NCBI GenBank assembly: GCA_963696295.1
Contig: CAVOJR010000001.1
Location: forward strand, 3,120,095 to 3,184,094
DNA: 64,000 bases
Direction of reading: 5' to 3'
DNA from: an uncultured Chlamydiae bacterium
GTDB lineage: Bacteria > Chlamydiota > Chlamydiia > Chlamydiales > JAJFMB01
How positions within the stretch are numbered: the first letter of the stretch is position 1; every line of letters begins with the position of its first letter. This document shows positions 33,532-33,903 of the stretch, piece after piece. A model generated the notes under the pieces. It worked only from the letters and a program-made list of their open reading frames with translations. It was not told the origin of the DNA and ran no database searches. Made by a program: the position numbers and the translations under genes.

Positions 33532-33903
33532 ATGAAGAAATGTTTATATATTATTCCATTTATCGCCTTAATGCTCTCCTTCGCGCCTCATCTTGAGGCC
33601 AAATGCAAAGAGGGCAAACCCAATAATAACAAAGGCGGCGGCTGTCAAAACGTCCATCATTACCACCATTACCGCGGAGGCGGCGGATGCGGTTGGGGCG
33701 GAGGCTTCGGCTGCGGCTGCGGCTACTGGGATGGAGGCTGCTGCGCAGGGAGTAGATTCTACGGAGCTCCCTACTATGGCCGTCCCTATTGCTACGATCC
33801 TTACTACGGCCCCTATTATGGCCCGGCCTGCCCTTGCTATCCTTGCGATGGCTATCCTGCCTGCGGCTGCGGCGGCGTGCAATTCGGCCTCTGGTTCAGA
33901 TAA
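33532..33903 (+). CDS. Secreted Gly/Cys/Tyr-rich protein (123 aa)
   Basis: GGGGAAGAG RBS. Signal peptide MKKCLYIIPFIALMLSFAPHLEA. By my count the mature ~100 aa contain 27 Gly, 14 Tyr and 13 Cys, plus HHYHHY. Motifs GCGCGYW, PYYG x3, CPCYPC. Locally GC-rich, which produces spurious overlapping ORFs on both strands. Confidence 0.7.
   Translation: MKKCLYIIPFIALMLSFAPHLEAKCKEGKPNNNKGGGCQNVHHYHHYRGGGGCGWGGGFGCGCGYWDGGCCAGSRFYGAPYYGRPYCYDPYYGPYYGPACPCYPCDGYPACGCGGVQFGLWFR

Follow-up and report, generated by a model that had tools for sequence, protein, structure and literature searches.

Organization of the locus and the coding frame

We analysed a 64,000-nucleotide stretch of DNA from an uncultured Chlamydiae bacterium (contig CAVOJR010000001.1, positions 3,120,095 to 3,184,094; hereafter, the window), focusing on a small gene that encodes a precursor rich in Gly, Tyr, and Cys. 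An earlier reading of the letters without database searches (the sequence-only reading) had placed this open reading frame (ORF) at 33532–33903 of the forward strand, and re-translation recovered it exactly: the frame opens with ATG, specifies 123 amino acids, and yields the protein sequence that had been quoted. The neighbours reported there were also found in place, i.e. a gene for an NTF2/SnoaL-like protein with a lipobox (LFSC) on one side and yidC (34034–36514) on the other. The features of the locus are collected in Table 1.

Table 1. Features of the Gly/Tyr/Cys-rich gene locus (window coordinates unless a locus is named; CDS, coding sequence; PWM, position weight matrix; SPase I, signal peptidase I)
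Feature	Position	Strand	Basis or remark
NTF2/SnoaL-like lipoprotein gene, 153 aa	32989..33450	+	Pfam SnoaL_2/DUF4440 and NCBIfam TIGR02246 above cut-off
Predicted sigma-54 (-24/-12) type promoter, TGGCAT-CTCTC-TTGCAT	33456..33472	+	consensus, conservation, PWM
Shine-Dalgarno-like AGGGGA, 6 nt before ATG	33520..33525	+	invariant block AATAGGGGA in three upstream regions
Gly/Tyr/Cys-rich precursor CDS, 123 aa	33532..33903, including stop codon	+	ORF, orthologues, codon use
Sec signal peptide MKKCLYIIPFIALMLSFAPHLEA	33532..33600	+	predicted SPase I site after (L/V)EA; no lipobox
Spurious antisense ORF	33568..34017; 138-aa version 33571–33984	-	public call P0122; negative codon score
Spurious alternative forward-frame ORF, 133 aa, Ala-rich	33593..33994	+	codon score -0.044; stops
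His/Tyr cluster HHYHHY, residues 42–47, then invariant Arg48	33655..33672	+	three-orthologue alignment
Gly/Cys/Trp-rich segment RGGGGCGWGGGFGCGCGYWDGGCCA, residues 48–72	33673..33747	+	alignment
Tyr/Pro segment FYGAPYYGRPYCYDPYYGPYYGP, residues 76–98	33757..33825	+	FYG.P and GPYYGP invariant in three orthologues
C-terminal Cys cluster ACPCYPCDGYPACGCGG, then tail VQFGLWFR	33826..33900	+	alignment
15-bp hairpin, 13 nt past stop codon	33916..33950	+	folding energy -25.7 kcal/mol, z = -6.7
Orthologous CDSs	L006:5499–5888; L007:5545–5916		same frame as the window gene

Orthologues were identified by using YidC as an anchor in a collection of 5.8 billion proteins, followed by inspection of the loci. 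Two closer relatives, both uncultured chlamydiae, have YidC proteins 85 and 72% identical to that of the window. The order NTF2-like gene, small ORF, yidC is common to the window and to loci L006 and L007/L008, and the small ORFs of L006 and L007 encode proteins of 129 aa (67% identical to the window protein) and 123 aa (56% identical), respectively. In L007, the true start is M10 of the called ORF, as set by the invariant Shine-Dalgarno block. Contigs of the same species (L004 and L005) are 100% identical to the window and thus carry no polymorphism information.

The gene coincides with a GC-rich spike, as had been pointed out (55.4% GC versus 47.7% for the window, with 200-nt windows of up to 62.5%). 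In such a stretch, ORF length is by itself no evidence for a gene, and we therefore relied on frame conservation under purifying selection. The two long overlapping ORFs that the sequence-only reading had considered spurious are present on the antisense strand and in an alternative forward frame, and codon use and stops identify both as such. Synonymous codons were scored against the preferences of 31 long window genes, which themselves score 0.068 +/- 0.044 (minimum -0.038). The gene frame reaches +0.112 per codon, and the antisense ORF (-0.053 to -0.062), which overuses the rare codons GTA, ATA, GCA, and CCA, and the alternative forward frame both lie below all 31 reference genes. Within the CDS, the alternative forward frame contains two to five stops in the window and the orthologues, the antisense ORF is broken or shortened at the orthologous loci, and stops interrupt all five other frames in every one of the three species. 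All length differences among the three orthologues are multiples of three, i.e. indels are in-frame only, and pairwise dN/dS values are 0.10–0.26, with dS saturated. The conserved Shine-Dalgarno block, signal peptide, and upstream promoter fit only the 33532–33903 frame. Because codon use, syntenic orthologues, and flanking signals form three independent lines of evidence, 33532–33903 is a real coding gene under purifying selection.

The gene is mis-annotated in public records. The public record for the locus, in Logan contigs and in the 3.3-Mb NCBI/ENA contig, is the antisense 138-aa P0122, and the gene-call collection searched has no entry for the Gly/Tyr/Cys protein. Gene calls in L006 comprise two fragments at the locus, including an 88-aa one that follows the alternative forward frame (L006:5617–5883, forward strand), and the correct frame was called only in L007. 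These choices of the gene callers are what favours a different view, that the true product is the antisense 138/149-aa ORF or that of the alternative forward frame, as the sequence-only reading had considered, or that the region is non-coding. The negative codon scores, the stops and breaks in the orthologues, and the restriction of the signal peptide, the Shine-Dalgarno sequence, in-frame indels, and a dN/dS well below 1 to the 33532–33903 frame speak against it so strongly that we give it almost no credence. Instead, the antisense call may explain why the protein is absent from the databases searched and why the query itself was not found in the first homology search.

Distribution and homology searches

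The chlamydial setting assumed by the sequence-only reading was borne out by YidC, the closest relatives of which are from Parachlamydiaceae, Waddliaceae, and Chlamydiota metagenome-assembled genomes (MAGs). The nearest named relatives are only 51–58% identical, and the lineage is therefore chlamydial yet not near any named genus. At the yidC loci with a YidC identity of 58% or less (L001–L003 and L010–L012), both this gene and the NTF2-like gene are missing. Three genomes of a single small clade make up the known range of the family.

The statement that no described family has this composition agreed with our searches, which gave no Pfam, NCBIfam, or PDB match and nothing real in protein collections; the homology and profile searches that had been suggested recovered no wider family, the syntenic orthologues having been reached via YidC. 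Specifically, phmmer found no match in a word-indexed set of 5.8 billion proteins, the NCBIfam scan of the window protein was negative, the PDB sequence search returned only noise (E > 0.4), and metagenome scans with the protein profile and with a profile of the NTF2-like neighbour were both empty. The sole phmmer match among 1.84 billion representatives (P0001) is a repeat protein and was rejected as a composition match, as were the weak matches of the three-orthologue profile among 5.8 billion proteins (P0123–P0125, E 2e-3 to 8.5). The latter are small secreted proteins without a Pfam family, encoded in unrelated neighbourhoods (P0124 and P0125 at loci L013 and L014, P0123 at L015). RHHYRGGG, a hydrophobic middle rich in Gly and Ala, and YYGP repeats occur in these proteins in co-linearity with parts of the window protein; the similarity is not significant.

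When the window protein, its mature part, and the two orthologues were scanned against Pfam (E <= 1 or E <= 10), the only match was a sub-threshold one to the glycine-rich protein (GRP) family PF07172. These plant cell-wall proteins share with the window protein a signal peptide followed by Gly-rich low-complexity sequence. PF07172 was the only model to score, with E 0.066 (14.3 bits) for the window protein and 8e-4 (20.4 bits) for the L006 protein. Membership was rejected: both values are under the 30-bit gathering threshold, the L007 protein and the mature part gave no score, and the match is composition-driven. The paralogue check, proposed for the genome, was carried out in the 64-kb window and revealed none there; no other ORF combines at least 18% Gly with at least 6% Tyr, and the Cys-rich ORFs (at least 7%) are all short.

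Features of the encoded protein

The signal peptide noticed by the sequence-only reading is of the Sec type and is conserved in the three orthologues, with a basic n-region, a hydrophobic h-region of 15 residues (grand average of hydropathy (GRAVY), 2.3), and (L/V)EA. The call follows the rule-of-thumb (-3,-1) criterion, with L/V at -3 and A at -1 in every orthologue. In each of them, the cleavage Ala is followed by one or two Lys residues before the first Cys, which leaves no lipobox. Behind this basic Lys/Cys start comes a Gly run, which reaches ten residues in L007.

The Gly/Cys-rich core would be compatible with a precursor of a ribosomally synthesized and post-translationally modified peptide (RiPP), either a microcin-B17-like Gly/Cys peptide or a Tyr/Trp cyclophane, and the poly-Gly run of L007 resembles McbA. 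The N-terminus, however, is a classical Sec signal and not a leader peptide. The earlier remark that no modification or export genes are adjacent holds for 15 kb on either side, where no cyclodehydratase, radical-SAM, or ABC exporter gene was found, and likewise for the orthologous loci; the genes around the locus encode a kinase, a tetratricopeptide repeat (TPR)-like protein, the NTF2-like lipoprotein, YidC, DnaA, AdoHcyase, and Lgt. We consider a RiPP precursor very improbable.

Removal of the 23-aa signal-like N-terminus leaves a mature part of 100 aa with 27 Gly, 14 Tyr, and 13 Cys, exactly as had been counted, together with 9 Pro, 4 His, 3 Trp, and 4 Phe. Val, Leu, Ile, and Met total only three residues and Thr is absent, whereas 21 of the 100 residues are aromatic; the GRAVY value is -0.65 and the net charge +4 to +5. 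The motifs singled out by the sequence-only reading were located at residues 42 (HHYHHY), 52 (GCGWGGGFGCGCGYWDGGCC), 80, 90, and 94 (PYYG), and 100 (CPCYPCDGYPACGCGG).

Composition and motifs are conserved among the orthologues, and the best-conserved residues are aromatic residues, Gly, and Pro. In the Gly/Cys/Trp-rich segment, W55, GGG56–58, and Y65-W66 are invariant, and GYW/GGW units are repeated in the orthologues. The tail follows the pattern G-x-Q-F-x-hydrophobic x3-R, with G115, Q117, F118, and R123 invariant. The number of Cys residues is conserved, at 13, 14, and 11 in the three orthologues, while in a MAFFT alignment the Cys-bearing regions are shared with a single invariant Cys column. 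Each orthologue has CxC, CxxC, and CC motifs at shifted positions. As two of the Cys counts are odd, at least one thiol lacks an intramolecular partner in these proteins.

Structure prediction from the single sequence with AlphaFold2 (AF2) gave a mean predicted local distance difference test score (pLDDT) of 40.8 and nothing confident past the signal helix, a model too poor for a fold search. This result is compatible with a disordered mature protein, which it suggests, as weak evidence when taken alone. The conserved but twice odd Cys number, the drift of the Cys positions, the likely disorder, and the scarcity of aliphatic residues suggest that cross-linking is irregular, in contrast to a fixed knot or a metal cluster.

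The main rival to such a cross-linking function, or else an added role, is metal binding. The protein could be a periplasmic binding or buffering protein for Zn, Ni, or Cu that uses its His cluster and Cys pairs, in the manner of a metallothionein, an Hpn-type histidine-rich protein, or the prion octarepeat, and that could load or protect the elementary body (EB). H42, H43, H45, and R48 are invariant, the cluster reads HHHYHH in L006 and is enlarged to HHHHHHHKHYH in L007, and the paired Cys motifs recur in each orthologue; the invariance of the cluster suggests that a metal or pH dependence has been selected for. The GGGW units beside the cluster recall the Cu-binding PHGGGWGQ repeat and provide a lead only. 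Against this stand the Cys positions, which are not fixed, and the top conserved blocks (FYG.P and GPYYGP), which are aromatic/Gly/Pro blocks and not ligands. A content of 21 aromatics per 100 residues is atypical for metallothioneins, and none of the adjacent genes encodes a metal transporter or chaperone. Membership in the metallothioneins themselves was rejected, because the protein has neither a fixed ligand pattern nor few aromatics and because the Pfam scan brought up no metallothionein family. On these grounds we regard metal binding as the chief function as unlikely, and cross-linking remains the preferred interpretation of the Cys residues.

A predicted sigma-54 promoter and other flanking signals

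The stop codon of the NTF2-like gene is directly followed by a sequence of the sigma-54 type, TGGCAT-N5-TTGCAT. This site, TGGCATCTCTCTTGCA (33456–33471), is intergenic and correctly oriented, lies 60 nt upstream of the ATG, and has GG (-24) and GC (-12) elements at canonical spacing; transcription would start ~50 nt upstream of the ATG. In elements, spacing, location, and orientation, it thus has the sequence properties of a sigma-54 promoter. The pattern TGGCAYN5TTGCW has a single match on both strands of the 64-kb window, where 0.14 are expected, and the site is still the sole match when the -12 pattern is relaxed to YYGCW. Both hexamers are invariant at the L006 and L007 loci, where the flanks have diverged. 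Each orthologous locus has one match in the same place, and loci without the gene have none upstream of yidC.

We also re-implemented the chlamydial sigma-54 PWM from Rizvi et al. (PMC12282069 Table S1; cut-off 10), and the re-implementation reproduces the published score of a control site. The three orthologous sites score 10.24 (window), 12.57, and 14.63, and no other site in the window reaches 8. Among 36 scanned window proteins, which represent 64 kb of a 3.3-Mb genome, none has a Sigma54 domain.

Past the stop codon, L006 keeps a 9-bp hairpin (-19.1, z = -4.7) with changes in both arms, and L007 has no hairpin. The element may be terminator-like or may stabilize the mRNA; it has no clear U-tract. 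A predicted promoter of its own and a terminator-like hairpin at two of the three loci point to transcription of the gene as a unit of its own, apart from the flanking NTF2-like gene and yidC. Consensus scans of the locus for sigma-70 promoters and terminators were uninformative. An AT-rich block (TGTGGTAAAGTCCTTTTTCATTATTAT..., 33989–34030, forward strand) just 5' of the yidC ATG is near-invariant in the three related loci and better conserved than the remaining intergenic DNA; it may be a yidC promoter or leader.

In each of the three genomes with the Gly/Tyr/Cys gene, the NTF2-like gene is its direct upstream neighbour, and a functional link between the two is putative. The two genes are co-present and co-absent, which would suit a secreted, bioactive peptide or protein with a target beyond the bacterial cell, either as a glycine-rich antimicrobial against competitors in amoebae or directed at the host, with the NTF2-like lipoprotein as its partner or immunity protein. 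The signal peptide, the small size, the cationic mature part, and the Gly/aromatic/His composition fit this idea as well. Yet a sigma-54 promoter between the two genes implies separate control, no exporter beyond Sec is encoded nearby, and no Pfam or NCBIfam match was obtained; moreover, low-complexity blocks kept by purifying selection together with 11–14 drifting Cys are unlike defined disulfide-knot toxins. An exported effector of this kind therefore appears quite unlikely to us.

Relation to chlamydial sigma-54 targets

In Chlamydia trachomatis, rpoN transcripts peak late, at 24–28 h post infection (hpi), and chromatin immunoprecipitation sequencing (ChIP-seq) detected sigma-54 binding only at 28 hpi or later, ~50 bp upstream of coding regions (PMC12282069). 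In a separate study, the genes switched on by CtcC, the activator of sigma-54, were mid-late or late; they code for membrane proteins and effectors, with omcA and omcB among them (PMC7482065). Because the present gene has its own predicted sigma-54 promoter, late expression is expected, and we infer that it is sigma-54-dependent and late-expressed in this organism.

The two ChIP-confirmed targets, both late genes, are Ctl0021 (CT652.1), of ~60 aa, and Ctl0052 (CT683), a protein with five TPRs, and both are functionally unassigned (PMC12282069). Identity with either was rejected, as tblastn of both against the window found nothing at the locus. The Ctl0021 orthologues (Table S1 of that study) are cytoplasmic-type proteins without a signal peptide or a Gly/Tyr/Cys bias and are unrelated to the window protein.

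Among the in-silico sigma-54 targets in Protochlamydia are the uncharacterised PC_RS11495 and PNK_RS13020 (PMC12282069 Table S1), both of which resemble the window protein in kind. PC_RS11495 (P. amoebophila) has a signal peptide followed by Gly/His/Tyr-rich low-complexity sequence, and in PNK_RS13020 (P. naegleriophila), which is Cys-rich like the window protein, the signal peptide precedes Gly/Tyr repeats and these in turn Cys/Tyr repeats. A third such protein is encoded by an ORF at L001. With the window protein, these share a size of ~115–190 aa, Gly-rich low complexity, His and/or Tyr clusters, an intergenic sigma-54-like promoter upstream, and the segment order signal peptide, Lys, Gly/His, Trp, Tyr-rich, and a tail like (N/Q)F-x-F-x-V. 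By contrast, PC_RS11495 and the L001 protein are essentially Cys-free in the mature part, and the genomic position differs.

Similarity to the window protein amounts to 37–43% over 89–113 aa with composition correction off only; with the correction on, only the signal peptides align (hhalign probability 19–54%, BLASTP E 0.32). Homology of the window protein to PC_RS11495 and the L001 ORF was thus rejected as unsupported after composition correction. The window protein and the Protochlamydia proteins appear to be the same kind of thing and are possibly distant relatives. A paper on developmental RNA-seq in P. amoebophila does not mention such genes.

The L001 ORF (L001:12779–13153, reverse strand) belongs to a Parachlamydiaceae MAG and encodes a Cys-free, secreted, Gly/His/Tyr-rich protein of 124 aa. 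It shares the MYRTLK start and the layout of PC_RS11495 and is likely its orthologue. The sigma-54-like site TGGCATTCTTCATGCA (L001:13329–13344, reverse strand) has one mismatch and a PWM score of 2.45, below the cut-off.

Comparison with known structural proteins

Among described proteins, OmcA, the small Cys-rich lipoprotein of the outer membrane complex of the Chlamydiaceae (Pfam Chlam_OMP3), provides a close comparison. Both proteins are chlamydial, with a Sec-type N-terminus, a mature part of ~9–10 kDa, and ~13 Cys. Further parallels are late expression, which is expected for the window gene, a sigma-54 promoter, predicted here and proposed for omcA (PMC7482065), and disulfide cross-linking of the EB envelope, which for the window protein is our proposal. 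On the other hand, OmcA is a lipoprotein, whereas the window protein is without a lipobox and is dominated by Gly (27%), Tyr (14%), and the His cluster. It matches no chlamydial outer membrane protein family in Pfam even at E <= 10 and is not an OmcA homologue. For omcA itself, binding of sigma-54 was not borne out by ChIP-seq (PMC12282069).

Outside the chlamydiae, the likenesses are of composition or circumstance. The high-glycine-tyrosine keratin-associated proteins of mammalian hair are Cys-bearing as well. These proteins, of the KRTAP6/19/20/21 type, have 6–10 kDa, are rich in Gly, Tyr, and Cys, and lack a fixed fold, and they form a disulfide-linked matrix that fills the space between structural elements. 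They differ in being eukaryotic and cytoplasmic, without a signal peptide or a His cluster, and with no family match to the window protein, and the parallel is one of composition only. Spore-coat proteins of the CotC, CotU, and CotG type from Bacillus are rich in Tyr (and Gly or Cys), are made late in the differentiation of a resistant form, and are cross-linked into an insoluble layer. The Tyr-rich proteins of the Eimeria oocyst wall are likewise late and cross-linked into an insoluble layer (PMC4776368). These coat proteins have no sequence relation to the window protein, and their cross-linking relies on dityrosine or on peroxidase/laccase chemistry. The present gene has no oxidase gene next to it, save for a match of uncertain meaning in the NTF2-like lipoprotein, which exceeds the NCBIfam cut-off for 'SgcJ/EcaC family oxidoreductase'. 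The protein appears to represent an undescribed family of unusual low-complexity composition among late, exported, Cys-rich chlamydial proteins.

Proposed function

We tentatively propose, with slightly less than even confidence, that the gene encodes a late-made, Sec-exported, disordered protein that self-associates and is disulfide cross-linked in the EB envelope as a functional analogue of OmcA. The sigma-54 promoter would switch the gene on late, at the conversion of the reticulate body (RB) to the EB, and a lineage-specific polypeptide of ~10 kDa without a fixed fold would be exported by Sec. After cleavage of the signal peptide, it would build up in the periplasm or the outer envelope and associate with itself through Tyr, Trp, Phe, His, and Arg contacts with Gly as spacers. 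In the oxidising envelope, intermolecular disulfides, formed with itself and/or with other Cys-rich envelope proteins, would lock the assembly, and the His cluster would add a metal- or pH-dependent association. The outcome would be a stiffened EB envelope. Three functions had been offered by the sequence-only reading; among these, envelope cross-linking or matrix formation is now favoured by the conserved predicted sigma-54 promoter, by a Cys number that is kept while the Cys positions drift, and by the disordered look of the aromatic/Gly composition, and a metallothionein-like function is weakened.

Several points weigh against this proposal. As the family is limited to three known genomes, it cannot serve as the envelope solution of chlamydiae at large. 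Metal binding would account just as well for the invariant His cluster and for the numerous CxC, CC, and CxxC motifs, the Pfam scans gave no similarity to OmcA and the protein has no lipobox, and the single-sequence AF2 model is uninformative alone. On the regulatory side, the window promoter is barely above the PWM cut-off (10.24 versus 10). ChIP-seq finds only two sigma-54-bound promoters in C. trachomatis and disputes most targets of the CtcC study, omcA and omcB included (PMC12282069), which makes the regulatory parallel with OmcA a weak one. In addition, at least one Chlamydia-related genome is reported to be without rpoN (PMC12282069).

In a wider version of the proposal, which we regard as doubtful, environmental chlamydiae may use sigma-54 at RB-to-EB conversion to deposit an exported, low-complexity, Gly/Tyr-rich coat or matrix. 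His-rich or, as here, Cys-rich variants would first form condensates in the periplasm or at the cell surface, which disulfide, metal, or aromatic interactions would then harden, forming a bacterial counterpart of keratin-associated and eggshell matrix proteins.

Other genes in the window

Divergent from the NTF2-like gene, a reverse-strand gene (32092–32883) encodes a 263-aa protein with a signal/lipobox-like N-terminus (FPSCC) and weak TPR matches; no relation to the TPR protein Ctl0052 was detectable, and no sigma-54 site lies upstream. It is followed on the same strand by a gene for a Ser/Thr protein kinase fused to an FGE-sulfatase (formylglycine-generating enzyme-like) domain (30215–32092) and, adjoining the latter, by one for a low-molecular-weight phosphotyrosine phosphatase (29731–30207). 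The kinase-phosphatase pair is found near yidC in L006, L010, and L011/L012, and the kinase alone in L001 and L002. Another reverse-strand gene (28724–29674), also present in L006, encodes a 316-aa protein with matches to the pentatricopeptide repeat (PPR), a mostly eukaryotic repeat type. At 10159–22139 lies a cluster of the classical menaquinone-pathway type, with genes for a UbiE methyltransferase, an AMP-binding enzyme, an o-succinylbenzoate synthase N-domain, a thiamine pyrophosphate (TPP) enzyme, and a chorismate-binding enzyme. For six consecutive large ORFs at 37–9795 (961, 322, 489, 319, 477, and 237 aa), Pfam gave no hit at E <= 1e-5.

Implications

The role of chlamydial sigma-54 is debated, with both confirmed C. 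trachomatis targets lacking an assigned function, and here a gene unrelated to them carries a conserved site. What this analysis appears to add is a predicted, conserved sigma-54 promoter at this gene and, with it, a putative link between an orphan protein and the sigma-54 question. Low-complexity secreted proteins stand uncommented among the predicted sigma-54 targets of Protochlamydia. Genes rich in Gly (GGC), Cys (TGC), and TAC codons give rise to stop-free, Ala-rich antisense ORFs, which gene callers tend to prefer, and proteins of this kind can therefore be missing, possibly systematically, from protein databases and proteomic search spaces. Trypsin-based proteomics is also likely to miss them. 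If our proposal is correct, sigma-54 would build part of the EB envelope outside the Chlamydiaceae, and if its wider version holds, matrix proteins would count among the outputs of the chlamydial sigma-54 regulon that have so far gone unrecognised. It would, moreover, be unusual for a bacterial protein of the periplasm or the surface to have the composition of a phase-separating, disulfide-curing material.

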